NCBI GenBank assembly: GCA_045658265.1
Contig: JAZOUS010000023.1
Span: 2,266 to 66,265, forward strand
Reading direction: 5' to 3'
DNA: 64,000 nt
Origin: Alistipes sp.
Lineage (GTDB): Bacteria > Bacteroidota > Bacteroidia > Bacteroidales > Rikenellaceae
Under the pieces are notes generated by a model that saw only the letters and a list, made by a program, of their open reading frames with translations, made no database searches and was not told where the DNA came from. This document shows positions 538 to 50,238 of the stretch, one piece after another (the first letter of the stretch is position 1; each line of letters starts with the position of its first letter). A program made the position numbers and the translations under genes.

Positions 538-1899
538 TTACTTTTCAGTAAAAAGCCACTTTATGCTGTCGAGATTCTTGAATTTGTCCGATATTTCAAT
601 TAAGTTGGAATCTATAGTCAAAGGCTTTTCCAGATTGGTTATATATGGATATGGACTCTCATTGAAGAGCGTACATTGTACGTTTACACAATTGGTGATT
701 ATCTTGTAGCAATCTTTCAAGCGTTTTCGCTCGTACCCCTCGCCACTCTTCTTCTCTACGTTGCGGATCAAACGCTTGTATTGCTCCTCGCCATCACCAT
801 TGTATATGGCCTCGTAGATAGATATAAATGCCTTTTCGTGCTTACTAACATCAACAACCGAAGGCGTATTGGGGGCTTTCGTGCGGTTAATCATATTCAT
901 AATATAAATTACGTGGGCTGCTGGTTCAAAGTCTAACCATTGCATTTTCCCATTCTCATCAACCAAATAGGTACACCAATCCCCATACATCCTTCGACCA
1001 TCGATTTTTTCTTGCGAGGATTTACTCACCAGTTTAAGCTTTAATCGAGAAGTTTTAGCTTTGTTGATTACGGCATCAATAGCCTCTGCCAATATGTTTT
1101 TATCCTGAATTCGTTTTGAGAGTTCGAGTATTAGTTCGTTCTTTTCATTTACACTTAGGTTCTGGCATATTTTTACATATTCCATTCGCTCATTTGAATG
1201 ACCATTATTGGCATTCTTTAATATGGCCTCCACTGTATCGGGGAACTTTTTTAAGCTATCGACAAAATCGGTATATTCCATTTTGGGAACACTGATCATC
1301 TTCTCGAAACCCTTTCCCAGAAACGCATATTCGCTGGCTGGGGCATTATATTTTCCCCGAAACGCTATTTGACTCTTTGCAGAAATCAGATTCCGGCTGT
1401 TATAGTCAATTAATTTCATCCAAAGCCGTTTAGCCTCATCGGGTGCAGTCTCAATAGTGGTAGCAAATGCTGCAAAAGAACATTCGTCACACACTTTCTG
1501 CGCATCAACAGTCAATATGCCGAATGCGTTCTCCAAATGGCTTGCATCATTAATTCTACCGATAAAGTAACATTTATAACTTCGGTCAGGCGTGTAAAGG
1601 GGCATTATAATATTATAATTAGGCTCCGAAGTTTTTATATACTCTAATAATCTTTCATCAGACCTGAAAAAAGAAAAATCAGTTATGGCCTCCACGGAAT
1701 ATGGTAAATGCCACAAGGCCCTTACTCGACTTTGCCTTATTGAATTTTGAGTTTGAAGTACGGCATCATTCCACTCGTCGCTATCATCGGTCAGAACATA
1801 TAGCGTGCCATCAAGCAAACCCTCTATAGCTCGTTCTCTGCAAATAAGTTTTGCGAAGAAACTACCGTCAAATTGTATTCTATTTAAATCTGCAATCAT
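538..1899 (-). CDS. Hypothetical protein (453 aa); C-terminal region possibly DNA-binding or regulatory
   Basis: Long ORF with no recognisable catalytic motif; the regulator idea is only a weak impression from the C-terminal ~150 aa (LDFEPAAHVIYIMNMI...). Confidence 0.65.
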   Translation of the reverse strand: MIADLNRIQFDGSFFAKLICRERAIEGLLDGTLYVLTDDSDEWNDAVLQTQNSIRQSRVRALWHLPYSVEAITDFSFFRSDERLLEYIKTSEPNYNIIMPLYTPDRSYKCYFIGRINDASHLENAFGILTVDAQKVCDECSFAAFATTIETAPDEAKRLWMKLIDYNSRNLISAKSQIAFRGKYNAPASEYAFLGKGFEKMISVPKMEYTDFVDSLKKFPDTVEAILKNANNGHSNERMEYVKICQNLSVNEKNELILELSKRIQDKNILAEAIDAVINKAKTSRLKLKLVSKSSQEKIDGRRMYGDWCTYLVDENGKMQWLDFEPAAHVIYIMNMINRTKAPNTPSVVDVSKHEKAFISIYEAIYNGDGEEQYKRLIRNVEKKSGEGYERKRLKDCYKIITNCVNVQCTLFNESPYPYITNLEKPLTIDSNLIEISDKFKNLDSIKWLFTEK

Positions 1900-2046
1900 T
1901 TGTTAAATGCTTTTTACATAGGAGCCTTTTTTAGTAATGGCCCAGTATTAGGACAATGTAATATTATTTATCGACATAAATAAGAATCTATGCTTGACGC
2001 TCATTTGAAAAAGCACCTAATTTCGCAGTATTGATGTGCGATATTA

Positions 2047-2217
2047 TTAGCTCTTATCTTCTATGTCTAAGTTTGAGACTGCGGCAGCTAAATTCAACCT
2101 TGTTATTAGACGAGAGTCCCTAATCAGTTTTTTTAAGATTGTACGCATCTCCTTTTCAGTTGCCTTACCCTCCAAAAATGCAGAGTACACATTCGCATTA
2201 CAAATCATATCTTCCAT
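2047..2217 (-). CDS. Small hypothetical protein (56 aa) with an anti-sigma N-terminal-like motif
   Basis: Hand translation: MEDMICNANVYSAFLEGKATEKEMRTILKKLIRDSRLITRLNLAAAVSNLDIEDKS; ATG 2217, TAA 2047-2049; too short for the ORF track. Confidence 0.5.
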   Translation of the reverse strand: MEDMICNANVYSAFLEGKATEKEMRTILKKLIRDSRLITRLNLAAAVSNLDIEDKS

Positions 2218-2574: not shown

Positions 2575-2796
2575 CTAATGAGCTCTGCTTTTTTCAAATT
2601 CTTTTTTACAATCAAGGCATATATATGTTGCATATGGGCATAAAGACTTTTGTGTCTCTCTTTCTGCTATAACTCCACCTGCAGGACCGGCCAGGTGACC
2701 AACTAAGCCTGCACCAAATGCACATATATTTGCAAATACTCGCGCTCCGATGTTTGTTCCTTGAGTTCTTTCCGAACCACAATATGGACATTTCAT
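2575..2796 (-). CDS. Small Zn-ribbon protein with an internal glycine-zipper hydrophobic segment
   Basis: CPYC ... FGAGLVGHLAGPAGG ... YICLDCKKEF; same architecture as 16664..16906. Confidence 0.75.
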   Translation of the reverse strand: MKCPYCGSERTQGTNIGARVFANICAFGAGLVGHLAGPAGGVIAERETQKSLCPYATYICLDCKKEFEKSRAH

Positions 2797-2960
2797 AATA
2801 TAATATTTTAATGTTAATTTTATTCAATTTCAGTATAACCAAATCATTGGGTTAAATGAAACTCTACCAACTTGCGCAACAATATGAGTATAACATCTCT
2901 TTTATCTCAGTTATATGCTAATGTATAAGTTAAAACATTATCCTCGATAACTTGCGATTA

Positions 2961-2968
2961 CAAATTTA
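2961..2968 (-). promoter_or_regulatory. Bacteroidetes -7 promoter element
   Basis: TAAATTTG on the minus strand matches TAnnTTTG and lies upstream of 2796. Confidence 0.4.
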
Positions 2969-3112
2969 CGAATTATATTCGATAAGCCAAGTTAATTAGT
3001 GCTCCTATCTTTATGATATAAAATGTAGAGATATTATTAAATCTCTTATTTCATTTTAATCGACAATGTTATACATTCTTGGCATTATGGGTTATTGCAA
3101 CGTTTTGCCCAA

Positions 3113-6100
3113 TTAGTCTATCATTACGAAGTTTGCCCAATATATTGGATGCTTAAATTGTTCCTTAACCTCATTCTTTGCATTGTTGAACGAGTTAATT
3201 AATGATTGTTCATCAAATAGCAGATGTTTATAAAATTTTGTCATAAACATAGCGCCAGCCTCATCCAGCTCATTCCACAATGACATAACTATACTTCTAA
3301 CGCCTGCTTTTTTGAAAGCCCTTTGCAGCCCATATAACTCATCGGAACGAACTATTCCATTTCCACTATTACAAACAGATAATACCACAAGTGATGTATC
3401 CCTCAGATCCATCTTGGCAATATCTGAGGCTGTAAGAATTCCTTCGTGTTGAATGGGTGTGCCGTATAGCCATCCCTGATTACCATTACTCATAACAATT
3501 CCCGACAAATCCATAGGGTTGAATCTGCCTTTTAATGCAGGTAGATTTGCTGCTGTTTCCTGCGTCTCAAAGAAACCGTGAGTCGCAAAATGAATTACCG
3601 ATACCTTTTTGCCACTTAATTCGTAGAACTTATCAGATGTTCCATCTGAATGAGTATATTTTCTGACAAAATCCTTTCCCTTTGATGTTTCCCACATAAA
3701 GGCGATATTGTTAATCTCTTTAAGGCTATAAAACAGATTATTCCAGGGCATAAGTTGTGTAACTTCTCCCTTTTCATAATTTATGGTATACCCTCTGTCT
3801 TTGGAATTTGTCTTTTCGTTGTACGCATAATCCAATCCTCCGAATAATTCTATGTTATTCAGCGAATTGTAATGTATTTTATCTCTTATTGTGCGGGCGT
3901 GACTTATTCGCGCAATGCTATTGTAATAATCGGATACGATACATTTGGTGTCATTTGATACTACAAGTGACTCCATCGGAATTTTATGCAATGATCCTGA
4001 TGGAACTATATAAATATTGAAGGAAGGGACAATATTCCTAAGGCAAGTAATATTGCTGAATATACGATTGAAAAGTCTATTGCTATATTCAAGATCTGGA
4101 TTATATGCTTCCGAAAAATGGTATTGCACCCCATCATGATATGATAGCGCATACACTTCGTCGAATATTTTTTGAATATCCGATTCTTTACACACTTTAT
4201 ATAGTTGCGGCGCTTTATATCCCTTCAGATATGCAAAAGCTATATATTGTCGGTCCTCATCCTGGATTTCATAATCATAGAAATCAATTACTACATCGTT
4301 GTCGCTCAGGCTATCAGCAATGTAACTGTAGTCTTGTTTTGCAAAATCTGAATATTTGTCAATTACATCGCAAGTTGCACACATTAAACGCATACGTTGC
4401 AAATAATGGTTGACATATTCATCTGATGAGTTCTCAGTCGAGGTACCCCAGGGATTTCTTTTCTGCTCATATCTCTCCAACTCTTCATATATGCTGCGGA
4501 TATTTTCTGGCATACCATCTGAAAAAATGGCAGACCTAAGAGTGTGCTCAGAACTGAGCATAAAGCCCTTGGATAACAGTATTAGTTCATAAATTTTATT
4601 GCGTAATATGTCACTGTCATCCTCATTGCATAAACTCACAATATGCTGTATTCTCTTAATAATGTCGTTCCAATAGTTTTCTCGCAGATCTCCGTCCATA
4701 TATTTTAACCGTTTGTTCGTCTGCGCTAATATCATATCAATTGCGGATATAATATCCTGCTCCGCTAAATGGTGTTCTCCTATATTCCTATATGCAATTG
4801 AGCGGTTGATGATGATGTTGAACTTAAAATAGTCTTTGTCTGCGTCAGTGGATTTTTCTATTATCTCTATGGCCTCATTAAATGCTTCAATTGCCATCTG
4901 CGGCTCAGTATCTTTTTGCAGATTTCCTATCTCAAACAGGCAATTATACATCGGTTGGTAGGACAACGTTATGTCAGAACCTGGGTGATGCTCTTTTTTG
5001 AACGTATCTACAATTGTCTTATACACCTCAATTGCTCCTGATGTATTTCCACAGCATTCGCAAGCCTTTCCTACGGAGTGAAGGGCCATTACCGTGTGGA
5101 AATCAGAGAACACATTGTCGGCGATTAGCATTGCATCATCAGCAAGGGAAATTGAGCGGTATAGATGCTTCTGTGAGATTTCTGCGTTAGAATGCCACAT
5201 CAACATCCTGAATTTGTCAGTAGGAAACATGTTTTGAGGAAATGGAATTTCATACGGTATATCTTCCTCCTCATCATTTTCCTTATCCATATTTCTGCTA
5301 ATTACCTCTTCTCTTGCCGCCGAATTGTGTAATAATTGATATGCAAATTTCAATGCATCGGAATTACTATACCCAATCTCCCCTCCATATGCTTTTGATT
5401 CAGCAGCCTTCAGTTCTTCCGTGCTGAGCGATGATGTTTGCCAATCTCCACGTTCTAATGCCAAGAGGGAGTCAATGACTGGCATTGCCTCCCGAATCCT
5501 GTTTCTCTTAAATTCAGACTTCTCCTCACTCAAAAGTTTCTCTCCCAATTTATACGGATTGAGCTTGTGTTCATCGCATAATGCTAATAATTCCTTAACA
5601 ACATCAATTCTTTCTTGGTCTATATCGGCATAAACACTCAAATCCACAGTAATAATGCAAATGGTCAATTTACGAACTATTGAAATATATTCGTAGGAGA
5701 CATCTTTTGCTTCTTTGGCTATCTGAAGAGCCTTATTATAGTATTCCATTGCTTTGGAAAACTCTCTTAGGCTCCCATAGTTGATAGCAATGTGAAACAA
5801 TGCCTCTATATGTTCTTCAAAAGATATGACATTCGATACTGCCGCAATTTTACATATTGCCTTTCCGCACAATATGGCCGTATTGTATTGTAGATGAGCC
5901 AACATAAAATCGGCTCTCTTGTAATAATAGTTATATAGACTCCTTAGAAACGACTCAATATGTTTTTTTATTCGCTGGTCGTTAAAACATAAATAGCGTT
6001 CTTTATATTTTTCTGCAAAAGTATCGTCATCAATGTCGAAAATTTGGTGTAGGTTTAATAACCGTTCGTTGGCAGTATAAAATAGTTGTTTATCTCCTTT

Positions 6101-6337
6101 GTTTTTTATAAGTAAATAAACCTCATCTATAAGAATCTGCAACTCCTCGAACCAATGCTCTTCTGATTGGGCAAGCATTCTGGTCTCCTCTAATTTTATG
6201 TACTCTTTGGTGCTCCACTTTTTGCAAAGAGATTCAACTGAAATATAACGCAATGTTTCAATCTTTTGCAGAGTATATCCTATCTTTTCAGCAGACCATA
6301 TTGCCCACATCGACAAAGCTTTCTTGATAATATTCAT
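3113..6337 (-). CDS. TPR-CHAT (caspase HetF-like) protease
   Basis: N-terminal and central TPR-like helical repeats (AMEYYNKALQIAK, AIEAFNEAIEII); CHAT motifs IVPSGSLHKIPME, IHFATHGFF (catalytic His), VVLSVCNSG (catalytic Cys), GLQRAFKKAG, HPIYWANF. Confidence 0.92.
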   Translation of the reverse strand: MNIIKKALSMWAIWSAEKIGYTLQKIETLRYISVESLCKKWSTKEYIKLEETRMLAQSEEHWFEELQILIDEVYLLIKNKGDKQLFYTANERLLNLHQIFDIDDDTFAEKYKERYLCFNDQRIKKHIESFLRSLYNYYYKRADFMLAHLQYNTAILCGKAICKIAAVSNVISFEEHIEALFHIAINYGSLREFSKAMEYYNKALQIAKEAKDVSYEYISIVRKLTICIITVDLSVYADIDQERIDVVKELLALCDEHKLNPYKLGEKLLSEEKSEFKRNRIREAMPVIDSLLALERGDWQTSSLSTEELKAAESKAYGGEIGYSNSDALKFAYQLLHNSAAREEVISRNMDKENDEEEDIPYEIPFPQNMFPTDKFRMLMWHSNAEISQKHLYRSISLADDAMLIADNVFSDFHTVMALHSVGKACECCGNTSGAIEVYKTIVDTFKKEHHPGSDITLSYQPMYNCLFEIGNLQKDTEPQMAIEAFNEAIEIIEKSTDADKDYFKFNIIINRSIAYRNIGEHHLAEQDIISAIDMILAQTNKRLKYMDGDLRENYWNDIIKRIQHIVSLCNEDDSDILRNKIYELILLSKGFMLSSEHTLRSAIFSDGMPENIRSIYEELERYEQKRNPWGTSTENSSDEYVNHYLQRMRLMCATCDVIDKYSDFAKQDYSYIADSLSDNDVVIDFYDYEIQDEDRQYIAFAYLKGYKAPQLYKVCKESDIQKIFDEVYALSYHDGVQYHFSEAYNPDLEYSNRLFNRIFSNITCLRNIVPSFNIYIVPSGSLHKIPMESLVVSNDTKCIVSDYYNSIARISHARTIRDKIHYNSLNNIELFGGLDYAYNEKTNSKDRGYTINYEKGEVTQLMPWNNLFYSLKEINNIAFMWETSKGKDFVRKYTHSDGTSDKFYELSGKKVSVIHFATHGFFETQETAANLPALKGRFNPMDLSGIVMSNGNQGWLYGTPIQHEGILTASDIAKMDLRDTSLVVLSVCNSGNGIVRSDELYGLQRAFKKAGVRSIVMSLWNELDEAGAMFMTKFYKHLLFDEQSLINSFNNAKNEVKEQFKHPIYWANFVMID

Positions 6338-6398
6338 ATCTTATTATTTGCAGATAACACATTTACATCGAGTATATACACAACTTGATGTGTTGTAA

Positions 6399-6749
6399 TT
6401 ACAGGAGTTTTACATAGTATGTGTCAGTATTTGAGTCGTTTGGTAAGTCCACTTTTATCTCACCCTTAACTACATATTTATATTTTGCATCAATTGCTGT
6501 CATCTCCCATTTTTCGGAGTTGGGGCATTTAACTAATAGCAGGAATGCGATATTGTCGTATTGTTTAATCTTGCCAGTTTCCAATAATAACGACTTATAT
6601 CGAGTTTTTATATATTCGACGGTATCGCCGTCTTCAATCTTCTTAGCTGTTTCTATCAAACCTTTAAAGTTAATAAAATACATTAAGAACTTTGATAAGC
6701 CTATGCTAATTTTATTGTCTGTGAAAAAATTTATAATTGTGTCAATCAT
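6399..6749 (-). CDS. Hypothetical protein (116 aa)
   Basis: ORF tightly packed between 6755..7750 and the CHAT gene on the same strand. Confidence 0.65.
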   Translation of the reverse strand: MIDTIINFFTDNKISIGLSKFLMYFINFKGLIETAKKIEDGDTVEYIKTRYKSLLLETGKIKQYDNIAFLLLVKCPNSEKWEMTAIDAKYKYVVKGEIKVDLPNDSNTDTYYVKLL

Positions 6750-6754
6750 TTTAT

Positions 6755-7750
6755 TTAGTATATATTGTTATAAACATACAAACTGATAAGTTTCTTTATT
6801 TCATTACTGCGAGGTATAGGACATAAATAGTTCTGGAAATTTCGTATTACTTCGTCTGTCAGCATAGTGTGATATTTCATACCCTCAATAAAGCAGTCTC
6901 CTATACGGAATGTGTACGACATATTTATGGCCTTACCAATAGAGAGCTCTTTTGAGTTTCCATCTCCAATGTGTTTTTCAATATCTTTATGCCACAATGG
7001 ATATTTTGCGGTGTTGATATAAATCGATGGGAATAGAACTTTGTATAGTGTTGGATGTTTTTGAGACCAGTCTCCGACTTCTGTGTACGCCTTATATATA
7101 ACTCCAATATATTTCCACGCTGGCAACTCTCTATGCATTACTTGTAGCATTGCAACTGCAATTGATACAACGCTTCGTGAAACAATAGTTTTTTCCGAAG
7201 ACACGGGATTTGAACTTGCCTTTTTTATTAGAGAAAACATCATAGCACCCCATATAATACTCAATGCAATTGTTTGAGTATATAGAACATCTCCATATTC
7301 GCTTATGGTGTTGCTTGATACCTTATTGTAAATAGATATCACGACTTTCTTAAATGCCGACATTCCATCGATATATGACAAACTGCTTACATCTGCAGAT
7401 TTATCAATGTAAAATTTTAGAATATCTTCATACGTAGCTCCATATGACACGAATGCAAACTTTGTATATACTCGCTCAATCAAATCTGTTGTTAAATTTT
7501 CAACATCAACAGGAATTTCTCTCTTTAGTTGTTCAATTGTAACAGTATTGAGTTTTGTACTGCTTGATAATGATAGTTTTGGTATACTTATCGGAGCTTT
7601 TAGAGCTAATTCAGAGAGACTGACTGATCTCCTTGTGAGGGGGAGGAGCGGATCAGGGCGAGGAGTAACAAGTTCTAATATAGAATCGGCAAGACGCTCA
7701 AGCAATGATTTTTCCTTAAATTTGAGCGGGCTCATTTTTAGTTCAGACAT
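6755..7750 (-). CDS. Hypothetical protein (331 aa)
   Basis: Long ORF; Ser/Pro/Leu-rich N-terminus and central hydrophobic helices; no family recognised. Confidence 0.7.
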   Translation of the reverse strand: MSELKMSPLKFKEKSLLERLADSILELVTPRPDPLLPLTRRSVSLSELALKAPISIPKLSLSSSTKLNTVTIEQLKREIPVDVENLTTDLIERVYTKFAFVSYGATYEDILKFYIDKSADVSSLSYIDGMSAFKKVVISIYNKVSSNTISEYGDVLYTQTIALSIIWGAMMFSLIKKASSNPVSSEKTIVSRSVVSIAVAMLQVMHRELPAWKYIGVIYKAYTEVGDWSQKHPTLYKVLFPSIYINTAKYPLWHKDIEKHIGDGNSKELSIGKAINMSYTFRIGDCFIEGMKYHTMLTDEVIRNFQNYLCPIPRSNEIKKLISLYVYNNIY

Positions 7751-7943
7751 TGTTTTATGTTTTAAATGTTAGTATTTAATGTTGTTTATTGATTACGGCA
7801 TATTATATATTAACCTTGTCTATTAAACTTGAAAAGCAAGATGTTTTGCAAAAATAAGTTTTACTAACTATTTTGTTCTGCAATATCCCCTTTATGGGAA
7901 CTATAATAATATGTCTAATTTATCGTGATTCTCATTTCATATT

Positions 7944-8843
7944 TTATTCAAAAGGATTACCTCCGTGTATGTGACAATATGCTGAATCTTTTGATACAAT
8001 ATTGCCACAGTGTATGCAAGGCACACCTTCGTATTTTTCGATTATTCTATCATATTCTCCAGAATTAATCCATTTCAAGAGTTCTCCTGCTCTATAAACT
8101 GTCCAAGGATGCGAACTTGTTAAAATTGACAAAGAACGTATTGCTGTATCGCCAAAGCCATTGTTGAGTTTCTCAAACTCCTCAGCTTGTTTAATGAAAG
8201 ACTCTTCATTGAGTTTGTTGAAGTATTTCATTGGTACTCCAGCCATTTTAATCACTGTCTGTATTGCTTCTTCTTTATTTTGACAGGCCAACAAGCCAGC
8301 GCGGTCCGCTGAGAATTCAGACATTCTATTCCAATACAATAGGGCATAGTGGATTGGTTCAAGCAAAGCATCTCCAAGTGGAATATATTTTATCATTGAA
8401 GATATCATTTGAGCCATAAGATGATATAAAACGTGCCCGCTTTTAATATGCCCCATTTCGTGGCCTATTATATATTTCAATTGATTATCATTGAGCAGAT
8501 CTACAGCTCCGCTATTTAACACGAGTAGGGTTTGATCTTTAATACCTGTTGTGTATGCATTAACTGCATATCCCCATTCTGTGTAAATTTCGGGAAAATC
8601 TTCTACGCCAATAGTCTTGGCAACATCTTCCACTAATTCATATAATTCTGGACAAGATTCGCGTGTTACGTGAAAATTGCTACCTTTCAGCTCGATAATC
8701 TGCCATTTTACAAAACCCCAATTTAAGAAGAAATTGGTTACAGTATCAAGCCCGGGTAGGGCACGCAGTTTTTTTAATGCAGCCTTATCAAATGGGTGTT
8801 CGTATTCTTCTGGCGGGAGATTGATTAATTTTTTAGCTTCCAT
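7944..8843 (-). CDS. M48 family Zn-metallopeptidase with a C-terminal Zn-ribbon
   Basis: HEMGH zinc motif, NRMSEFSADRAG and SSHP motifs, N-terminal YEHPFD..AL..L...PG; C-terminal CIHC...CHIHG. Confidence 0.9.
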   Translation of the reverse strand: MEAKKLINLPPEEYEHPFDKAALKKLRALPGLDTVTNFFLNWGFVKWQIIELKGSNFHVTRESCPELYELVEDVAKTIGVEDFPEIYTEWGYAVNAYTTGIKDQTLLVLNSGAVDLLNDNQLKYIIGHEMGHIKSGHVLYHLMAQMISSMIKYIPLGDALLEPIHYALLYWNRMSEFSADRAGLLACQNKEEAIQTVIKMAGVPMKYFNKLNEESFIKQAEEFEKLNNGFGDTAIRSLSILTSSHPWTVYRAGELLKWINSGEYDRIIEKYEGVPCIHCGNIVSKDSAYCHIHGGNPFE

Positions 8844-8969
8844 ATTTGTTATTTTTATTCTATCGTTGCGTTATTCGTTATAATCTTATTACAAAGTAAA
8901 TACAGTCAGAGTCAATTTGTCGCTACATTATGTGATTAAAATTTAAGTTACACCTTTTTAATCTAATTG

Positions 8970-9050
8970 AATATTGTCTTTGTTTTGCAGAATATTTCTG
9001 TTAATCCTAAAATTATATTTTGTAGGCTTTGTGTTTGCAAAGACAATATT
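8970..9050. repeat. Perfect 13-bp inverted repeat with a 55-bp spacer
   Basis: aatattgtctttg (8970-8982) and caaagacaatatt (9038-9050). Confidence 0.6.
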
Positions 9051-9077
9051 CTCTTTACTTATAGAAGATAAATGAAT

Positions 9078-9845
9078 CTAATTTCCATCGTTTATTGGAT
9101 GCATATCACAACTTACTGCAGGCATATTTTCTGTGTTTTCATCACAATCTTCTTTAATAGCCAATTCTCCATAGCGGATATGCCCATTTTGTAAAATGGC
9201 GGCATTGACAAACTCTCTTTTTATATTATGTTCTTCTAATATAATATGAAAATATGATAAAGAGCCTATCATAATGTAATCAACAACGCCTGGGGTGTGG
9301 ATAAATTTCTTGGACTCTGGGCATAAAATAATCCATTCATATATTTTTGAAATATCAGCTCTCAGACCATTGGCTTTTGAATCATAAATTATTGTGGGGC
9401 TTATGATATCATTTAGTTTGTGAGAGTTATGTATGCAGAATGTAGCAACGTTATCCATCAAATCAATATCGGATGGAGTGTTAGCTACAAACAAAATTGT
9501 GAATGGCGTTGAGCGACCTTCTTCATCCTTCATCGAACCATATAAATTTCTTATAGCTAAACATACAGAACCATCATTAAGAGTTCGATACATAACTACA
9601 TAGCCGCCGTGTGAGAACAGGCTTTTACATTCAGATGGAAAATCATAGGTTGAATTTCTCGAAATTATTTGTATCTTATCCAAACTTTCAAGTTCCGAAA
9701 TCTTTTGCACTTCTTCTGCCAAACCTCTTTTTTTCATTATAGAAAGAAGTGGTAAGTAGTACACAGATGAGGAATTTGCATCAAGATTTCCGAGATACAT
9801 ATCTTTATACCCTCCAAATGAGTAAAAACAATAAGCCCTTATCAT
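9078..9845 (-). CDS. Putative GTPase-associated adaptor protein, paralog of 11108..11971
   Basis: Shares YSxGGYKDxYLG, YYLPLL, SHGGY and KDExGRSxPF with the paralog; follows a GTPase gene. Confidence 0.7.
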   Translation of the reverse strand: MIRAYCFYSFGGYKDMYLGNLDANSSSVYYLPLLSIMKKRGLAEEVQKISELESLDKIQIISRNSTYDFPSECKSLFSHGGYVVMYRTLNDGSVCLAIRNLYGSMKDEEGRSTPFTILFVANTPSDIDLMDNVATFCIHNSHKLNDIISPTIIYDSKANGLRADISKIYEWIILCPESKKFIHTPGVVDYIMIGSLSYFHIILEEHNIKREFVNAAILQNGHIRYGELAIKEDCDENTENMPAVSCDMHPINDGN

Positions 9846-9849
9846 ATTC

Positions 9850-11106
9850 TTATTTTGTCAAGAGATTTACATCTTTATATATTTCTATTCCTTCTCCGGA
9901 ATATTTAATAATATTATCAGATTTCATCTTATTGATAATTTTCTCCATATTTTTTACAGGAATGTCTCCAAAATAGTTTATGCATTTAGACCACAATCCT
10001 ACTGTTAATATATTTGATATAATGTTTCCAGCACACTTTAGAAATCTTTTAGCTATGCTTTGTTCTCTATCTTTCCTTATTTTTGTATCGACAAATTTTC
10101 TCATCATAAAGTCTAATATATGTAATGCCAATTGCTCGCAGTTGTGAGGAGCATATGTGGAACTTGTTACTTCAAACCACGAATTAGGCCTTATTATATC
10201 TGTGTCTGGAATTAGAACAGCAGAATAATCATCTGCAATGGTCCCTTCTTTCTTCTGCATTAGTTGCCCATTAGATAGCCTTACATTATCAAGGTTAATA
10301 GCGCTACATTTTTGTGTATTTGTTTTATTGAAAAAGAGCAGAATAGTTTTAGTCCAGGTAAACAGTTGCGCTGGCAGATGTTCTTTAAACACCATAGAGC
10401 CAACTGTTTGTATAGGCAAAAATTCAATGATAATATTATCGTGAGCACTTAAATTTGCGATAGCAGTTGCATATACACTTTTTGTACGTGCTACAACCTG
10501 ATCCAAAGCATTCTTTTTTGCCCATTTTTCGCACTTAATAGGGGTAAATAGAACGAGCTTCGCATTCGTACAGTTTTTAGAATTGATAGATGATAAAAAA
10601 TTATGAATATCATCAACAAAATTGAATTTTTCATTGATAATATCATCTACATATTCGTTATTATCATTTGCAGATTCCATCATATATGTGGTATCAACAG
10701 CTATGATAAAGACATCGTATTCTTCAATGAATTTGCATATCTCATCTTGGCGCATATTACCACTCTCATAGAATTCACCATTGACATCAGTGAATAATAT
10801 TTCCATTTTTTTGAAGCTGCCAGGGAGGGATAGCTCTAATCTGTAATGCCAGATTTTAGAGGTCTTCCCAGAGTCTACAAGTATGGTTTTGCCATTATTT
10901 TGTGAAAGACAAGATTTAATTTCGGATAATTTCCGCCTAATAGATTCCTGTTTCTCATTTTCATATTTTGCCAATTCTGTTGTATCTTTCACTTGCAATA
11001 ACGAGTCTATGGGTGCTTTCATAAAAGCATCCATAACTGCGGCAAGAGCAGAACTTTTTCCCACTCTTTGGCCACCCATCATCAAAACCTTTAACCCTTT
11101 CGACAT
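9850..11106 (-). CDS. TRAFAC-class P-loop GTPase (copy C)
   Basis: G1 GGQRVGKSS, G3 DVNGE, G4-position PIKCE; paralog of 12004..13170. Confidence 0.85.
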   Translation of the reverse strand: MSKGLKVLMMGGQRVGKSSALAAVMDAFMKAPIDSLLQVKDTTELAKYENEKQESIRRKLSEIKSCLSQNNGKTILVDSGKTSKIWHYRLELSLPGSFKKMEILFTDVNGEFYESGNMRQDEICKFIEEYDVFIIAVDTTYMMESANDNNEYVDDIINEKFNFVDDIHNFLSSINSKNCTNAKLVLFTPIKCEKWAKKNALDQVVARTKSVYATAIANLSAHDNIIIEFLPIQTVGSMVFKEHLPAQLFTWTKTILLFFNKTNTQKCSAINLDNVRLSNGQLMQKKEGTIADDYSAVLIPDTDIIRPNSWFEVTSSTYAPHNCEQLALHILDFMMRKFVDTKIRKDREQSIAKRFLKCAGNIISNILTVGLWSKCINYFGDIPVKNMEKIINKMKSDNIIKYSGEGIEIYKDVNLLTK

Positions 11107-11107
11107 T

Positions 11108-11971
11108 TTACTTGCCCCAATTTGTAATAAAATATGCGATTATGCCGATTATAGCAATAATACCAGCGATTGCTAAGTATACTAATTTTATTCTTTTTTG
11201 ATTCTTTCTTTCTGCCTGTGCCTGTATAAGCATCCTATTTGATTTATCTGGATTATCTTTGGGAAGAACCTTTGTAAGCGGAACTAAATTTACTTTTTTT
11301 CTTTGCAATTCCAACTCATCCAATATCAACTTGTCGGTAATTCCTGGCAAAACTAATAGAGCTCCTACTGTGTCTTGTTTTACAGATATAGCACTAATAC
11401 CATCTGTCGTTTCTATGCCTATTTGTTTATAGACCGATTGATTAACAAGTTGGTTAAACTCTTGAAGGTTAAATTTTATTCCATTTACAACCTTATCGTA
11501 CGCAAACATTGTGGAAATTTTTTTCACAACTGTGTTCAAATGATTACTCCAATAAGCTGCAATGGAAGCTAACTTATTTGCGTCGTTAGTATTATCAGCT
11601 ACAATCATTACTAAGAAAGGTATTGATCGCCCTGATTCATCCTTGTTTTCACCATTAATATCTCTTAATGTCAAAATGTAGGTATCGTTTTCTGCGTGAG
11701 TAAATATCAATTTATATCCACCGTGTGAAATCAATTTGCCACCCATAGATGGCAGCCCCCAATCGTTCGACTTATTAACTATCTTAATCTTGGGTAAGTT
11801 TTCCAAGTCGGATATTTTCTCAATGGCAGCTTTATCATCTCCCTCTAATGCTTTTTTCTTTTGAATAGCTAAAAGGGGGAGATAATATGTAAATTGTTCT
11901 GCCATCTCAGATGAACCAAGATACAAATCCTTGTAACCGCCTATTGAATAGTATGAATAATATCTTAACAT
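11108..11971 (-). CDS. Putative GTPase-associated adaptor protein with a C-terminal transmembrane helix
   Basis: YSIGGYKDLYLG, KDESGRSIPF; C-terminal LVYLAIAGIIAIIGIIAYFI preceded by basic residues. Confidence 0.75.
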   Translation of the reverse strand: MLRYYSYYSIGGYKDLYLGSSEMAEQFTYYLPLLAIQKKKALEGDDKAAIEKISDLENLPKIKIVNKSNDWGLPSMGGKLISHGGYKLIFTHAENDTYILTLRDINGENKDESGRSIPFLVMIVADNTNDANKLASIAAYWSNHLNTVVKKISTMFAYDKVVNGIKFNLQEFNQLVNQSVYKQIGIETTDGISAISVKQDTVGALLVLPGITDKLILDELELQRKKVNLVPLTKVLPKDNPDKSNRMLIQAQAERKNQKRIKLVYLAIAGIIAIIGIIAYFITNWGK

Positions 11972-12003
11972 AGCTTTTCTATTTTATATCATATATAGAT
12001 ATC

Positions 12004-13170
12004 TTATGAATAAATTTTTATGCGCTTGATGCCATCTCCTGTGTCTTTTATCAAGCCTCTGTTTGTAAGTTCTACAATAGTGTTATTTAGATCATTTAGA
12101 GTGATTGCTCCGAATATGCTTCTAAAAAATTGAATAATACTATTATTACTTTGATTCTTTCTTGCTTTATTGAGCATAAAACGCAATATGTGCAGTGCTA
12201 TTTGCTCACAATTGTGTGGAGTATATTTAGGGCTCTTGGAGTTGTGGTGGAACCAAGACGAAGGGCGTTCGATATCTATATTTTCTTTATCGAATTTGAA
12301 ATTGCCTTCGGGATCTGGGTTTAAAACATCTTCCGGCTTTTTATAATACATCTCTCCATTACCAAGAACGACTGTATTTTCTGTTACTTTTGAACATTTT
12401 TTAACTTCACCTTCTTGATTAATAATAACCCACGACTGCCTCATTTCTGAAAATACAATACCCCCAGCTGTCTGGATAGGTATAATTGATAATTCCGTGT
12501 TATCTCGGTTTTTCAGATGACTAATGGTTGGTGCATATACCTTTAATATTTTCTCGTTTACCTCATTTATCTTTCCTTCTTGAATCCATTTTTCACATTT
12601 GATAGGCACGAACAGAACAAATTTTGGAGCCAGCTTCTCATCTGATTTTTCATCAATTGATGTCAAGAAAGAGTGAATCGAATCAGTAACATTTGCAGCA
12701 CAAACCACTGAATCGTCATCACTCATAAGATAAGGCGTATCTACAATCACAACAAAAACATCACAATCATTAATATACTTTGTGGCCTCATCGGTGTGTG
12801 CGCCTCCGTGATCAAAGAATTCACCAGCAGCGTCGCGAAACTCCATATTCATAGTCTTATTTGTTCCAGCTAAGGAGATCTGCATATTATAAAACCACCA
12901 ATTTCTTGTAGGGCCTTTGTCTACAAGAAAGTCCGAAGGATTATATTTCCTAAGAAACGATTGCAATTCCAATTTCTTGATATTCAACGGCTCTTGCTTC
13001 TCCTCTTTAAGGGTAATCGGATCAATTTTTGTTTCAAGTATAGTCTTGTCTGCTACTGTAAGTAATTTAAAAATAGCAGGAGTATTTTTCATCTGGTCAA
13101 ACAAACTAGCCAATGCAGATGTTTTTCCGCATCGGCGACCGCCCATCATCAATACTTTTAGATTTCCCAT
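12004..13170 (-). CDS. TRAFAC-class P-loop GTPase (copy B)
   Basis: G1 GGRRCGKTS, G2-like GPT, G3 DAAGE, G4-position PIKCE; ATG at 13170 (GTG at 13173 is an alternative start). Confidence 0.85.
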   Translation of the reverse strand: MGNLKVLMMGGRRCGKTSALASLFDQMKNTPAIFKLLTVADKTILETKIDPITLKEEKQEPLNIKKLELQSFLRKYNPSDFLVDKGPTRNWWFYNMQISLAGTNKTMNMEFRDAAGEFFDHGGAHTDEATKYINDCDVFVVIVDTPYLMSDDDSVVCAANVTDSIHSFLTSIDEKSDEKLAPKFVLFVPIKCEKWIQEGKINEVNEKILKVYAPTISHLKNRDNTELSIIPIQTAGGIVFSEMRQSWVIINQEGEVKKCSKVTENTVVLGNGEMYYKKPEDVLNPDPEGNFKFDKENIDIERPSSWFHHNSKSPKYTPHNCEQIALHILRFMLNKARKNQSNNSIIQFFRSIFGAITLNDLNNTIVELTNRGLIKDTGDGIKRIKIYS

Positions 13171-13178
13171 CACAAATT

Positions 13179-14213
13179 CTATTTAAGGTTTAAAATAGTG
13201 TTAGTAACGACTAATTCATAGCCATTTTTGTTGTAAATAATATTCCTTCCCATCTTTTTGATTTCGTGGAAAAAATCTTTATCGTCTTTCAGATAAGAGA
13301 CAAAATTATTTCGCATTTTTTCAAAAAAGTTTGAAGGTTGCCGCATCAGCCACTCATATTGATTGGCCACATAAGTCAATAGGTAATAAAGTGGCTGAAC
13401 ACAAAACATTGGGGTGAATTTGGGATTTGTCCCATAGTATCGATATCTCGATAATTTGGTAACTTTACCGATGCCGGTTTGGTTATCTACAAACTGGTCA
13501 AACTCAACGTGTCCCAATGTTTGAATAGGCGTTATCGCGCACGCAATATTATTGTTTCGACATATCTCAATAAGTCTGGAATATGCAGACTTAACCTTTG
13601 CGTTCAAAATTTCCAGTTTGCTATCGTGAAAATATCTCTCGCTTTTTAGGGGAACCAGAAGAATCATCTTGTCTTTTATCGACTCAATATTCAACTCAAG
13701 AAAATGAGTAACAAGCAAAACCTCATTCTTGTCCTCATTGTATATGCCATTTTCTTCCATTAAATATGGCGTATCAATTGCAACCATTATGACATTCGAG
13801 TCACATATAAATTGTGATACTTTTTCAGGTTCAGATGTAAGAAATTCACCAGGAAAGTCTTTGATATTGATATCCACAGTATGGGCACGCCCTGATTTTC
13901 CCATCTCAAACGAGAACGTAGACTCAACAGATGTAGCCTCAATTGCTCCTGTTTTTGGAGTATCTTGAATATCTTTTCTATTGGTTATAATATTCTGCAG
14001 AAGAAGTTTCTTCCTAATCAGCTCTCCGCTCGTTTCTGCTTTGGGCCTAAAATAGATTCCCGCATCAGCCACAGTATCTCTCGCTTCGCTAAAGATAGAC
14101 GCCATTAACGATGTCTTCCCCACTGCTCGAGGTCCCATCATTGTTACGTTGAGTGTGGGAGTACTTCCTATAGTACCCCCAATTTTATCTTTTATTTTAT
14201 TGAGGAAACTCAT
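13179..14213 (-). CDS. TRAFAC-class P-loop GTPase (copy A)
   Basis: G1 GPRAVGKTS, G2-like EAT, G3 DFPGE, G4-position PLKSE; ATG at 14213 directly after the upstream stop. Confidence 0.85.
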   Translation of the reverse strand: MSFLNKIKDKIGGTIGSTPTLNVTMMGPRAVGKTSLMASIFSEARDTVADAGIYFRPKAETSGELIRKKLLLQNIITNRKDIQDTPKTGAIEATSVESTFSFEMGKSGRAHTVDINIKDFPGEFLTSEPEKVSQFICDSNVIMVAIDTPYLMEENGIYNEDKNEVLLVTHFLELNIESIKDKMILLVPLKSERYFHDSKLEILNAKVKSAYSRLIEICRNNNIACAITPIQTLGHVEFDQFVDNQTGIGKVTKLSRYRYYGTNPKFTPMFCVQPLYYLLTYVANQYEWLMRQPSNFFEKMRNNFVSYLKDDKDFFHEIKKMGRNIIYNKNGYELVVTNTILNLK

Positions 14214-14215
14214 AT

Positions 14216-16603
14216 TCAATTGTTCGTTGAGTTGAATAAATTAGTTGCCATTGCCGTTCTGACAGATTCTATGCAATTTGCCCAATCTGAGAATGCGGCA
14301 TTTTCTTTTGTTAAACTTTCAATTTCATTATGCCAAATCAAGCCCATATTATCTTGGTAAAAATCCTTAAAATCTTGAACTCCATTGATATTGGTGCCAA
14401 TTTTAATATGGAACTTATGTACTCTTGAATAGAATGACTGACTTGGAATCAGAGCAAAATCATTCATCCAGCTTTTTAATCTTTTTTGCAGTGGCATTAA
14501 TCGGCTTGCAAGTTCTTGCCATACTTGTGCGGCTTTCTTAGAATAATCGTGAGGATCTCCGCCATCATATGGAATAAAGTCTTCGTGATCCTTCTCTATT
14601 ATATGCAAACTATTTGTTACATTATACTCAACAAGCCCCTCTATGCTAATCTTATAATCAAGAACATATCGTATTGCATCAAACAATGCAGGATATTTTT
14701 CCTGTGGTATATAATTCTTAATCACACACTCCATCCATTCAGTTGTCGGTTCAATAGGGCAGTCTGATGGCAATGGTAACATTGACATTTTTCCTTGTTC
14801 GAATAATACTTTGATAAGGTCTGTTTTTACTTTCTCCTGCAAGGAATTTAAAACATTTTTGTTAGTCCCCTCAAAAGATTCAAATATGCCATTTCGTATC
14901 TTCTCAATATATTCTCCAAATACTTCCGATGTTGTTAACAAAACTCCACTCTTGAATCTATCAATCAGTTCATCTTCTGTTGGGAGATCCTTGTCTATTA
15001 AATTAATAATTTGGTTATATGCTTCTGTTAACTCTGGACATTGTTTGTCTTTGTTAACAGCGTACCCATCGTGATCGATATTGTTCATTTCGATATTGAA
15101 ATCGTGGAGCATAGGAACAAATCCGTCCTTCTCAAATTTCCATCCCGTAATTGAATTTAAAGGTATTACCTTTGACGCGGTTTGAAGAAGACTTTGGCAT
15201 AGGTTATATGCATTTATAGCCTCTTCCGATGCTTGACTCAATAAATTCTTATCCAAACTTTCAAGATTGCTTGCGATCATCTCGAGGTGAGGAACAAGAA
15301 GTTTGTCATTTACCTCCTTTCTGTCTGCGGCATTTACATCGACATAGAAGCCGAATGGCAGGTTTTTAAGAGCTAAATCGCTCAAAATATCTTCTACATT
15401 TTGAATATTGCGCTTGTCTCCATATGGAATAGCATTTATAGCGTATGACAACCATTTTTTAGGCTCTCTTGAAGCCAAATTTTGTTCAAGTTTAGTATAT
15501 ATGCCAATCTCCTTCTCATTTATTGAACCTCCCGTATTTGCAGGACAATACACGTCAATTGCTCCATCGCAATCCTCTTTCAATACCCTGAACATCTCCT
15601 GTTCCACGGCATCCGCATTTACCGAAGGGCCTAAGCCTACGGTATCAACGAACTCAATTCGGCCACACTCTTGATTGGGGAATTTACAATAGATATTAAC
15701 CGACTTGACAGCCAAATACCAATAATACATATGTCTCCAAACAATAGTCTTAATAGTGCCATCCTGATTTTTCTCTTTGATTCGCTCATTTATATCCTCT
15801 TCGGGGGCATCCTTAGGTAAGGATTCCCTTGTGGAATATTCACGATATTGAGCTACAAATTTCATTACCACATCTTTGTCTGTATGTGATTCAATACCTC
15901 TTCCCAGATATGGACCATATAAATGTCTATGCCCTATGATGTTGTTTTTAATTAGTTTTTCTATTTCAGTTTTATCTTTACCCGAGTATGAAGATAAATC
16001 TATAGATGCCAAATCCTCTAAAGAAGAAATAATAAAATTCTTCTCAGGCATCAATATTTTCAATTTTGCTTTTACATTATCAAGAAACTCTTGTAGAGTG
16101 TAAAACTCAATATCAGCCCTAAAAGGTGTGTCTGTATCCTCATTATGTATCACAGAAACTGCACCTGTACAACTTGTACCATCATAAGCCGGAATTACCT
16201 CATTAGGCAACCCGGTCATTGACTGCAGAAAAGTGCTTTTCCCTTGACGTTCATAGCCAATGAATGCAATACGGACAGTCTCTCGTTTAAATCTTTTTTG
16301 TAACTTTTTAAGACTGGATAAAGCTTCATCTATACGAACCAAAACGGCAACATAATCCAATTGTTTAAATGAGGCCATTGCATTTGGATCTGCATAGAGG
16401 GCTTTATAAAACTCACCACTCTTATTTGAAATTTGAGCGTCTGCCATTTTAGTATATGATTGCAAAACCAATATACTATCACGGATTTTCTCTAATGCTG
16501 CGATTTTAGCCTCAACATTTTGAAGATGGCCCTTGCCTTGATATGAATTTCGACCTAATCTCATATCAAGTATTTTATCTATCTGTTCATTAATAGTTGC
16601 CAT
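14216..16603 (-). CDS. Dynamin-like GTPase (795 aa)
   Basis: N-terminal helical region, G1 GYERQGKST, G2 TSCTG, G3 DTVG far downstream after a long insertion, long helical C-terminal stalk. Confidence 0.75.
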   Translation of the reverse strand: MATINEQIDKILDMRLGRNSYQGKGHLQNVEAKIAALEKIRDSILVLQSYTKMADAQISNKSGEFYKALYADPNAMASFKQLDYVAVLVRIDEALSSLKKLQKRFKRETVRIAFIGYERQGKSTFLQSMTGLPNEVIPAYDGTSCTGAVSVIHNEDTDTPFRADIEFYTLQEFLDNVKAKLKILMPEKNFIISSLEDLASIDLSSYSGKDKTEIEKLIKNNIIGHRHLYGPYLGRGIESHTDKDVVMKFVAQYREYSTRESLPKDAPEEDINERIKEKNQDGTIKTIVWRHMYYWYLAVKSVNIYCKFPNQECGRIEFVDTVGLGPSVNADAVEQEMFRVLKEDCDGAIDVYCPANTGGSINEKEIGIYTKLEQNLASREPKKWLSYAINAIPYGDKRNIQNVEDILSDLALKNLPFGFYVDVNAADRKEVNDKLLVPHLEMIASNLESLDKNLLSQASEEAINAYNLCQSLLQTASKVIPLNSITGWKFEKDGFVPMLHDFNIEMNNIDHDGYAVNKDKQCPELTEAYNQIINLIDKDLPTEDELIDRFKSGVLLTTSEVFGEYIEKIRNGIFESFEGTNKNVLNSLQEKVKTDLIKVLFEQGKMSMLPLPSDCPIEPTTEWMECVIKNYIPQEKYPALFDAIRYVLDYKISIEGLVEYNVTNSLHIIEKDHEDFIPYDGGDPHDYSKKAAQVWQELASRLMPLQKRLKSWMNDFALIPSQSFYSRVHKFHIKIGTNINGVQDFKDFYQDNMGLIWHNEIESLTKENAAFSDWANCIESVRTAMATNLFNSTNN

Positions 16604-16663
16604 ATATAGTTCATTTTTAAATTAGTTCATACTGAAAGTATGTATGAAAACAGTTATCTTAAA

Positions 16664-16906
16664 CTAAAAGTCCTTTTTGCACAATCGACAATAGTATCTA
16701 TTGATATTATTTCCCCAATCCTTAGTCTCTTTTAAAACTTCGTGGCCAGCTATATGACCGGCTGCGTGATGAAATAATCCTCCAATAACACAAGCCACTC
16801 CTGCACCAACATATCGAGCGCTTTGAACCAAGCCATATCCAATGTTGCCGCTAATTTTGGGCTCTGTGAAATGTGACAAACCGCAATACTTACACCTTAC
16901 TGACAT
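16664..16906 (-). CDS. Small Zn-ribbon protein with an internal glycine-zipper segment
   Basis: CKYC ... VGAGVACVIGG...AAGHIAG ... YYCRLCKKDF. Confidence 0.75.
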   Translation of the reverse strand: MSVRCKYCGLSHFTEPKISGNIGYGLVQSARYVGAGVACVIGGLFHHAAGHIAGHEVLKETKDWGNNINRYYCRLCKKDF

Positions 16907-16915
16907 AACGATAAC

Positions 16916-17866
16916 TTATATTAAAATGTTAATACTTCCCATCAATAATCCGAGCAAAGCTCCTAACCACACAATTGCTTTAAGCTCTTTATCCATTACT
17001 TGGAAAATTAGCTTCTCGGTTTCATCCATATCCATCTCGTTGATACGCGATTCTATGATTGCGGGTATGTTGATTGCCTCAAGTATTCGAGGGAGATGTT
17101 CGGAGATGACCGTTCTATACAATCCAATACAAGAGTTTGTGATTTGCTCAATCTGTAAATCCTTGCCCTGCAAAAGTCGCTGCATAGAGACTTGTGAAAT
17201 ATCATCAATACCTTTGTTGACAAGGTTTTCAATAATCTCCTCTCCATTAGTTGACAATATTTGATTGATATTCTTAGCGAGAAAGTGCTTCGCTGGTTTT
17301 TCAATGAGATTTGCAATTTGCCCCCAAATTGAAGAACCGATTAAAGGTTTTAATATTTGTGGGAAATTTATATCTAACCCATCTATCTTTAGTTTAGATG
17401 AAACGTGATTCATTACCGCATCCGATATCTGTTCCCCTAGATTGGATTCACCCAGTTTTGTGGAAACCTGATCTGTCAATTCGTCTTTCACGCCACTAAT
17501 CAATCTGTCAATATCATCATTTGTTAAATAGTGGGCGAGAAACTCGCGTACTGTTTCTGGATTATTCCTCTGCGTAGCAAAAAAAGCATCTATAGCCTGA
17601 CGAATTTTAGCAATCATTTCGTCGGACAAGAGATTCTTTTCCAATATTTCTTTACTCATCAGATTTTCACTGATTGCGCCACCGATAGCACTGGCAATAC
17701 GCCCTTTCTCTTTGGGGATGATACCGGGGGTAAAAGGAACTCTAATTCCAAATAGATATTTTTCCTTGTGAGGGCGAAATAACATTCTGATGGCTATATC
17801 ATTTGTGATATAACCGATTACACCGCCCAGTAATGGTGCTATGATATATGAAATTTCAAAACTCAT
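16916..17866 (-). CDS. DUF445 (YheB-like) membrane protein
   Basis: GGVIGYITNDIAIRMLFRP...PFTPGIIPK at the N-terminus; KELKAIVWLGALLGLLMG at the C-terminus. Confidence 0.88.
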   Translation of the reverse strand: MSFEISYIIAPLLGGVIGYITNDIAIRMLFRPHKEKYLFGIRVPFTPGIIPKEKGRIASAIGGAISENLMSKEILEKNLLSDEMIAKIRQAIDAFFATQRNNPETVREFLAHYLTNDDIDRLISGVKDELTDQVSTKLGESNLGEQISDAVMNHVSSKLKIDGLDINFPQILKPLIGSSIWGQIANLIEKPAKHFLAKNINQILSTNGEEIIENLVNKGIDDISQVSMQRLLQGKDLQIEQITNSCIGLYRTVISEHLPRILEAINIPAIIESRINEMDMDETEKLIFQVMDKELKAIVWLGALLGLLMGSINILI

Positions 17867-50162: not shown

Positions 50163-50238
50163 TGGTAGCGGGGGGAGGACTCGAACCTCCGACCTCCGGG
50201 TTATGAGCCCGACGAGCTGCCAACTGCTCTACCCCGCG
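50163..50238 (-). tRNA. tRNA-fMet (CAT), initiator
   Basis: CGCGGGGTAGAGCAGTTGGCAGCTCGTCGGGCTCATAACCCGGAGGTCGGAGGTTCGAGTCCTCCCCCCGCTACCA: cloverleaf, CAT anticodon, C1:U72 mismatch, three G-C pairs in the anticodon stem, encoded CCA. Confidence 0.96.

Follow-up and report, generated by a model that had tools for sequence, protein, structure and literature searches.

We describe a candidate GTP-gated membrane module in a 64,000-nucleotide stretch of an Alistipes sp. genome (GenBank assembly GCA_045658265.1, contig JAZOUS010000023.1, positions 2,266 to 66,265), hereafter the window, whose own numbering is used below. The constant core of this system is a dynamin-like protein, one to four DO-GTPase-like GTPases and one or two partner proteins. 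It is apparently an undescribed third, dynamin-coupled branch of GTPase-centric conflict systems. A preliminary description of this DNA had proposed a membrane-associated multi-GTPase system with two proteases, comprising all 13 co-oriented genes between 2575 and 17866. The GTPase core and its kinship to dynamins and to DO-GTPase/GAP1 systems held up, whereas the 13-gene, dual-protease extent did not.

Conservation of the core in related loci and on plasmids

All 13 co-oriented open reading frames (ORFs), 2575..17866, were located on the minus strand in the order and at the coordinates first given. In transcription order, genes 1 to 8 are separated by 9, 60, −4, 5, 32, 1, and 4 bp, in agreement with the earlier figure of at most about 60 bp. 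The gaps from gene 8 (partner B) onward are 234, 193, 5, 61, and 316 bp. The core genes, all on the minus strand, encode the dynamin-like GTPase (795 aa, 14216..16603), GTPase A (346 aa, 13179..14219), GTPase B (389 aa, 12004..13173), and partner A (11108..11971). The expanded form adds GTPase C (418 aa, 9850..11106) and partner B (255 aa, 9078..9845).

Related loci were surveyed in one same-genus genome, one Phocaeicola metagenome-assembled genome (MAG), and 64 metagenome contigs. These 66 loci form 45 groups at 90% nucleotide identity, and counts were taken only from loci with enough flank. The dynamin gene lay upstream of GTPase B in every locus counted (60/60 loci, 42/42 groups), and a partner gene lay downstream of GTPase B in all 50 (34/34 groups). 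GTPase A and GTPase C were present in 55 of 61 and 39 of 46 surveyed loci, respectively. Among the 43 loci flanked on both sides, one, two, three, and four GTPases were found in 3, 3, 28, and 9 loci, respectively. The identity matrices of the dynamin, GTPase A, and GTPase B correlated with rho values of 0.85–0.91 (14 loci plus the window), which shows co-inheritance, not function. The dynamin and the partner (formerly "adaptor") as obligatory components, as well as the prediction of a longin-like partner, go beyond the preliminary description. The system is rare: it was found in 1 of 250 other genomes of the genus, 400 genomes of the order gave one weak match, and a single-protein scan of GTDB contigs returned one locus.

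A plasmid search with the dynamin served as a control and returned nine records, eight of which were examined in their neighbourhood. A GTPase gene adjoins four of these eight dynamin homologues. Plasmids of Nostoc carneum and Streptomyces aurantiacus carry a dynamin, a PxKCE GTPase, and a partner that is tail-anchored and has the GR motif in its hairpin; this is the minimal three-gene form of the system. By hhalign, these two partners are linked only weakly to the partner family, with probabilities of 3.5% and 1.1%, respectively. A Stanieria plasmid combines a dynamin and a DO-GTPase-like gene with a 992-aa protein. On a plasmid of Nostoc sp. ATCC 53789 (L083), the dynamin is divergent from three tandem GTPases and an 812-aa protein. 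One of these three GTPases exceeds both DO-GTPase cut-offs, and the locus represents a cyanobacterial DO-GTPase-like system. In Aulosira, a GTPase match directly follows the dynamin match, as judged from coordinates only. No PxKCE GTPase without a dynamin was seen in the surveyed loci and plasmids. A dynamin-GTPase pair also occurs in genome G530 (L079, G530:C195). By eye, methyltransferase-like and restriction-like genes lie alongside this pair, and the genes of the contig look unlike those of Bacteroidales; bin contamination is possible.

Proteins of the core

The 795-aa protein gave weak Dynamin_N/MMR_HSR1 matches in Pfam, with intact G1 and DxxG motifs. Its AF2 model has a pLDDT of 87. The best Foldseek match of this model was BDLP (2j69, E 2.7e-10), followed by Campylobacter DLP, SynDLP, and IniA (to 6e-9). 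All top matches belong to the dynamin family, with low TM-scores of 0.17–0.27. A BDLP-type dynamin fold is well supported by this model. No strongly hydrophobic window and no transmembrane segment appeared on a hydrophobicity scan, and the dynamin profile matched 0 of 195 other genomes of the phylum. Two 1053-aa ORFs (L065:4264-7425 and L066:1402-4563) join about 280 residues that look ADP-ribosylglycohydrolase-like by eye to a dynamin, through fusion or read-through. Another protein, P0121 (1289 aa), holds two dynamin GTPase regions in tandem.

On the DO-GTPase2 profile (PF19993, cut-off 27), GTPases A, B, and C scored 22.8, 27.8, and 25.7 bits, respectively, and canonical Bacteroidota DO-GTPase controls scored 185–219 bits. 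The G1 motif and DxxGE, with the Walker B glutamate, are present in all three window GTPases, and the DxxGE pattern recurs in 77 of 82 rows of the GTPase alignment. GTPase A carries GPRAVGKT, DFPGE, and PLKSE; GTPase B, the survey anchor, carries GGRRCGKT, DAAGE, and PIKCE. GTPase C is a paralogue of GTPase B (35% identity). A PxKCE G4 motif is common to the window-type GTPases, which begin at the G domain without an N-terminal Zn ribbon. In quick trees, the only kind cited here for the GTPases, the window-type proteins group apart from canonical DO-GTPases with an SH-aLRT of only 88, and GTPase A forms its own clade. The first count of three GTPases was right, whereas the label "small" sits poorly with sizes of 346–418 aa.

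We found 633 homologues of GTPase B, most of them already labelled PF19993. One relative in an Alistipes MAG shares 66% identity, and others occur in Muribaculum and Lachnospiraceae MAGs. The viral contigs and phage records searched held no relative of GTPase B, and sequence searches of the PDB with the GTPase B and partner profiles returned nothing significant. In loci with four GTPases, the fourth copy (L015:12045, L016:6573, L047:7137, L053:4235, L054:10180) has an altered P-loop, such as GGLLCGKT or GGYLCGKT, and no DxxGE match. This copy is possibly a pseudo-GTPase.

Partner A comprises a predicted longin-like domain (about residues 1–185), a small alpha/beta domain, and a C-terminal hydrophobic membrane anchor from residue 264 (KD 2.66). 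Partner B shares 32% identity with partner A and showed no hydrophobic anchor on the hydrophobicity scan, consistent with the single anchored adaptor first described. The closest relatives of partner B are 353–378 aa long and have an acidic linker and a hydrophobic tail, both missing in partner B. The gap between partner B and the downstream M48 gene is 234 bp (8844-9077); in 37 loci it measures −58 to 24 bp. Partner B is possibly truncated, and its 3′ end may have decayed.

The AF2 model of partner A has a pLDDT of 95.8. Nine of the top ten VIA-align rows were chains of longin complexes, aligned over residues 1–185. The best row was FLCN (Z 6.8, rmsd 4.2, 134 aligned residues), and other longin rows included Lst4, a Lokiarchaeota longin, GATOR1, and the C9orf72 complex. 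In a wide search against 48,161 representatives, FLCN again ranked first (Z 6.1, rmsd 4.5, 140 aligned residues). These model comparisons point with moderate confidence to a longin fold in partner A.

The partner family contains 352 clusters at 50% identity. Among the best 150 of these clusters, D111 is conserved in 142 of 149, R115 in 139 of 146, and P118 and F119 each in 140 of 149. In the partner A model, R115 belongs to a DxxGR115xxPF hairpin and sits at the loop end between the adjacent strands 98–110 and 116–125. This conserved R115 is a candidate arginine finger. R115 may be equivalent to SMCR8 R147 or to FLCN R164, which presumably sits in a matching hairpin loop. FLCN, NPRL2, and SMCR8 have a catalytic arginine in the longin domain (PMC12290439, PMC8213707, PMC9473554, 10.1101/2020.04.15.042515), and longin GTPase-activating proteins (GAPs) work through an arginine finger (PMC12290439, PMC8213707).

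In the ESM Atlas, 23–37% of the members of clusters near partner A have GAP1-N1/N2, with scores of 0.78–0.85, which serves as a lead only. In canonical GAP1-N1 proteins, SRSG or RSGR occurs at what by eye seems to be the same hairpin. PF20013 was not found in genome G000, and no homologue of 719–2050 aa was found, which is weak evidence. A complex prediction for GTPase B and partner A with GTP and Mg gave a median score of 0.21 against a mark of 0.32 and has no bearing either way.

Accessory genes and island cargo

A soluble M48 metalloprotease with a C-terminal Cys/His cluster (7944..8843, minus strand, Pfam 84 bits) follows partner B, and its HEMGH and ExSADR motifs are intact. This gene is present in 36 of 39 surveyed loci and its identity matrix correlates with those of the core at rho 0.54–0.67; M48 is co-inherited with the core. 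M48 relatives occur in 9 of 250 genus genomes, at 80% identity in the GTPase-bearing G006 and at 30–49% in the others. At the upstream end, a DUF445 membrane protein (16916..17866, minus strand, Pfam 127 bits) recurs in 24 of 29 loci with rho values of −0.19 to 0.09 against the core. It is a frequent neighbour, not co-inherited with the core, and no DUF445 relative was found in 250 genomes of the genus.

The TPR-CHAT protease (3113..6337, minus strand, Pfam CHAT 140 bits plus TPR) has intact His920 and Cys989. CHAT was absent from all 34 loci (23 groups) with at least 7 kb downstream and from all 30 with 9 kb. Of the 65 neighbour representatives of at least 230 aa, the 46 given to this Pfam scan had no CHAT match; the rest were flanking genes or proteins covered by another scan. 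CHAT relatives in five genomes of the family share 23–26% identity, with no GTPase, dynamin, or partner within 14–19 kb. In the loci surveyed around GTPase homologues, M48 and DUF445 recur and CHAT does not, and the protease link first proposed is supported for M48, not for CHAT.

The remaining genes of the 13 are on the minus strand as well. A 331-aa protein (6755..7750) gave no usable ESM Atlas match and only weak blastp matches to ORFs of 515 and 513 aa in L046 and L051 (E 7e-7 and 4e-6). A 116-aa protein (6399..6749) has no family match, and neither of these two genes had a tblastn match in related loci. Two Zn-ribbon/Gly-rich small proteins (protein 1, 16664..16906; protein 2, 2575..2796) are 32% alike and are the only Zn-ribbon/Gly-type proteins among six distinct ORFs found genome-wide by a CxxC filter. 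This class occurs in 11 of 22 loci flanked on both sides (4/14 groups); protein 1 itself had no tblastn match. Protein 2 has a 47% homologue beside M48 in a GTPase-free island of genome G069. With no tblastn matches in related loci and Zn-ribbon genes in GTPase-free islands, the 116-aa, 331-aa, and Zn-ribbon genes are not supported as parts of the system.

Gene GC across the island is 0.32–0.41, compared with 0.489 genome-wide. This agrees with the AT-rich island first noted, whose lower boundary at 2575 does not hold: from a position of about 18.6 kb, the island continues past 2575 down to the contig start. It is therefore truncated by the assembly and has four extra ORFs beyond the 13. These comprise ORFs of 56 and 453 aa (538..2217, minus strand) and, outside the window, a 423-aa ORF and a kinase-AAA ORF (G000:C23:1-2713, to the contig end). 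The 423-aa ORF looks sigma-factor-like by eye, and Pfam gave no match. Relatives of the 453-aa, 423-aa, and kinase-AAA ORFs lie near the core in L014, L046, L051, L064, L065, and L038. The upstream island edge holds 809 non-coding bases, with neither an integrase nor an UpxY gene. Repeat, promoter, and terminator scans of the window gave no att site, no array, and no clear terminator. The sole tRNA of the window, a tRNA-Met (50163-50238), is distant from the island.

An UpxY/NusG gene lies upstream in 15 of 18 surveyed loci, and locus neighbours identified by Pfam include nSTAND3, PD-(D/E)XK, patatin, and ADP-ribosylglycohydrolase. G097, G092, and G069, three of four examined genomes with M48 relatives, carry integrase-UpxY islands (L093, L094, and L095, respectively) with an M48 relative and without the core. 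Two of these three islands also hold Zn-ribbon/Gly genes. In the G097 island, as judged by eye or blast, some six Hsp70-like genes form a single co-oriented array, alongside radical-SAM genes. Low-GC islands of this class (L093–L095, and L008 in G006) are headed by an integrase and UpxY, or by an integrase and a sigma-like/anti-sigma-like pair. Core-free islands hold the same cargo classes, and the window island therefore resembles a single sample of an island class built from exchangeable cassettes, one of them the dynamin-GTPase-partner(-M48) module. The CHAT, 331-aa, 116-aa, and Zn-ribbon genes are likely separate exchangeable cargo.

Proposed mechanism, known systems and alternatives

We propose, with confidence evenly balanced between yes and no, that the core is a GTP-gated membrane defence module in which the longin-like partner regulates a GTPase, this switch controls the dynamin, and M48 adds a second threshold. 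The partners would bind neighbouring GTPases at the inner membrane, GTPase B with partner A and GTPase C with partner B. Each partner would set the nucleotide state of its GTPase, and R115 would most likely let it do so as a GAP. With the switch off, the dynamin would stay unassembled. An infection or damage to the membrane would lift this off state. The dynamin, which has no anchor of its own, may then polymerise on the membrane and so confine the phage or bring about cell death. In the expanded form, M48 could act as a processing or threshold protease. An anti-invader role of the module is likely from this analysis. A wider version of this proposal spans at least three phyla and describes a mobile immune module with an anchored longin GAP (with a FLCN/GATOR1-like arginine finger), a small-GTPase substrate, and a dynamin effector; the GAP1-N domains of all DO-GTPase systems would then be longin GAPs. 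We hold this wider version to be rather doubtful.

Several observations weigh against the proposed defence module. The survey was anchored on the GTPase B profile and covered at most 10 kb per side, and its loci are kin. Classic defence systems are few among the locus neighbours. Four of the eight examined plasmid dynamins have no adjacent GTPase, two of them intact in Calothrix, one split by an IS, and one truncated; the dynamin can thus stand alone. The Calothrix homologues (L080, L085) adjoin filamentous-haemagglutinin-like genes. For the longin domain, no Foldseek match of the partner A model reached E 0.001, the 49 rows listed besides FLCN in the wide search cover the tail helix alone, and VIA-align Z values below 8 fall in the range that the tool calls possibly a common arrangement, which is why the longin call is only moderate. 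The arginine is absent from some distant partners (L069, L063, and the second copy of L064), and the GTPases themselves have P-loop arginines. Pfam on 51 partners showed no GAP1 family among the matches listed (25 of 62), and an hhalign comparison of the partner with the N-termini of three canonical GAP1-N1 proteins gave no signal, at a probability of 0.1–0.3% and with a shallow template.

The nearest described relatives are the GTPase-centric systems of Kaur et al. (2020), defined there by a three-domain GAP1 and by GASH or FNIII, together with DO-GTPases that have a glutamate in Walker B (PMC7159879). Similar to these, the window system has TRAFAC GTPases with the Walker B glutamate, paralogous copies, a partner gene downstream of a GTPase, membrane anchors, mobile neighbourhoods, and variable cargo. 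It differs in PF19993 scores of 23–28 bits instead of 185–219, in the PxKCE G4, in the lack of the N-terminal Zn ribbon, and in partners of about 240–420 aa, whereas canonical GAP1 controls have 1019–1035 aa. The dynamin is a constant third part here, and the system occurs in cyanobacteria, from which DO-GTPase/GAP1 systems were called nearly absent (PMC7159879). Assignment to the GAP1-N1 subtype, which has a GASH gene and a Zn ribbon on one GTPase, was rejected because neither the window nor 46 neighbour representatives had a GASH match and the GTPases have no Zn ribbon; the control locus L076 gave a GASH match of 217 bits. The GAP1-N2 subtype, with an FNIII-repeat component and two Zn ribbons on its GTPase, was rejected for lack of an FNIII match in the window or neighbour representatives, and a three-domain GAP1 (GAP1-N, -M, -C) in the partner was rejected because Pfam and hhalign gave no match and the partner is far shorter.

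In Eleos, two dynamins encoded in one operon give protection from jumbo phages (10.1101/2022.05.11.491447). The window protein shares the bacterial dynamin-like fold of Eleos/LeoABC, BDLP, SynDLP, and IniA, and 19 of 34 dynamin homologues gave a weak LeoBC profile match (best E 2.5e-6). In contrast to Eleos, there is one dynamin and not a pair, it has no transmembrane segment, and smaller GTPases and a partner stand alongside. Eleos/LeoABC was rejected for the single dynamin and because PADLOC gave no match for it. As the preliminary description expected, PADLOC found no real match for any of the 13 proteins (best LeoC, E 0.003), and NCBIfam gave nothing specific on the window proteins. With FLCN-FNIP2, GATOR1, and C9orf72-SMCR8, the best structural matches of partner A (1–185), the system shares two paralogous partners per locus, several GTPases alongside, and a conserved hairpin-loop arginine of possibly equivalent position. 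It differs from these eukaryotic longin GAPs in having about 7% identity to them, Z values of 5–7, and no sign of a full DENN module; their substrates are Rag/Arf, whereas here the GTPases are DO-GTPase-like.

A membrane-stress or repair machine of the IniA, SynDLP, or DynA type, with no anti-phage role, is an unlikely reading of the same core. The best fold matches are BDLP, SynDLP, and IniA, and Hsp70-like, YbjN-like, DUF445, DUF697, and glycine-zipper proteins abound in the cargo, which would suit such a machine; the patchy distribution, the low-GC islands and plasmids, and the one to four GTPase copies suit a conflict system better than housekeeping. Because DynA also acts against phage (10.1101/2022.05.11.491447), the repair and defence readings overlap. 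To a similar degree we doubt that the partner is a GAP1-N-like sensor or scaffold with a structural R115, and that the GTPases activate themselves as homo- or heterodimers through P-loop arginines. The arginine-bearing P-loops GGRRCGKT, GGQRVGKS, and GPRAVGKT, the joint conservation of D111 and R115, which could pair, and weak TagF matches in VIA-align (Z 3.2–3.3) would fit this view, as would the GTPase dimers coordinated by GAP1 that Kaur et al. proposed (PMC7159879). However, single-GTPase forms retain the partner, and the Nostoc and Streptomyces partners retain the GR motif. Both the sensor/scaffold and the repair readings overlap in part with the proposed defence module.

A single 13-gene system in which M48 and CHAT are coupled effectors is very improbable. 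The genes lie co-oriented on one island, the catalytic residues are intact in both proteases, and caspase-superfamily peptidases are among the variable effectors of GAP1-N1 systems (PMC7159879); CHAT might therefore be an effector that was recruited locally. However, CHAT was found in none of 34 loci (23 groups), the same cargo classes occur without GTPases, and the downstream genes are set off by gaps of 193–316 bp with −7-like motifs at 7856 and 2968, a weak sign given 7 such motifs in 18.7 kb. It is quite unlikely that the system has already been described under another name, whether in source data that accompany Kaur et al., in a later paper from that group, or elsewhere. The PF19993 label on most GTPase B homologues would fit this, and a 2026 ParA preprint refers to unpublished findings in which profilin-longin-like domains accompany TRAFAC GTPases in systems against selfish elements (10.64898/2026.10.19.760177); the DO-GTPase group may thus already know the module. 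However, our literature search, within openly accessible papers, found no description of such a system, in agreement with the earlier statement that no named system has this combination. The words "dynamin," "M48," and "CHAT" do not occur in the main text of Kaur et al. (PMC7159879), and "dynamin" does not occur in two of its supplements; Figure 1-source data 1 lay outside this search.

The dynamin-coupled core represents a candidate module that PADLOC does not recognise and that couples two GTPase classes studied separately so far in bacterial immunity. As a candidate defence system it is compact and clonable, with three genes in Nostoc and Streptomyces and six plus M48 in Bacteroidales-type loci. 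R115 provides a residue-level hypothesis for the role of the GAP1-like partners of DO-GTPases, and this hypothesis bears on whether there is longin GAP chemistry beyond eukaryotes and Asgard archaea. Integrase-UpxY islands with exchangeable cargo are a class worth mining. If the wider version of the proposal is true, the module would be a bacterial counterpart of the eukaryotic membrane-traffic logic that joins a longin domain, a small GTPase, and a dynamin.

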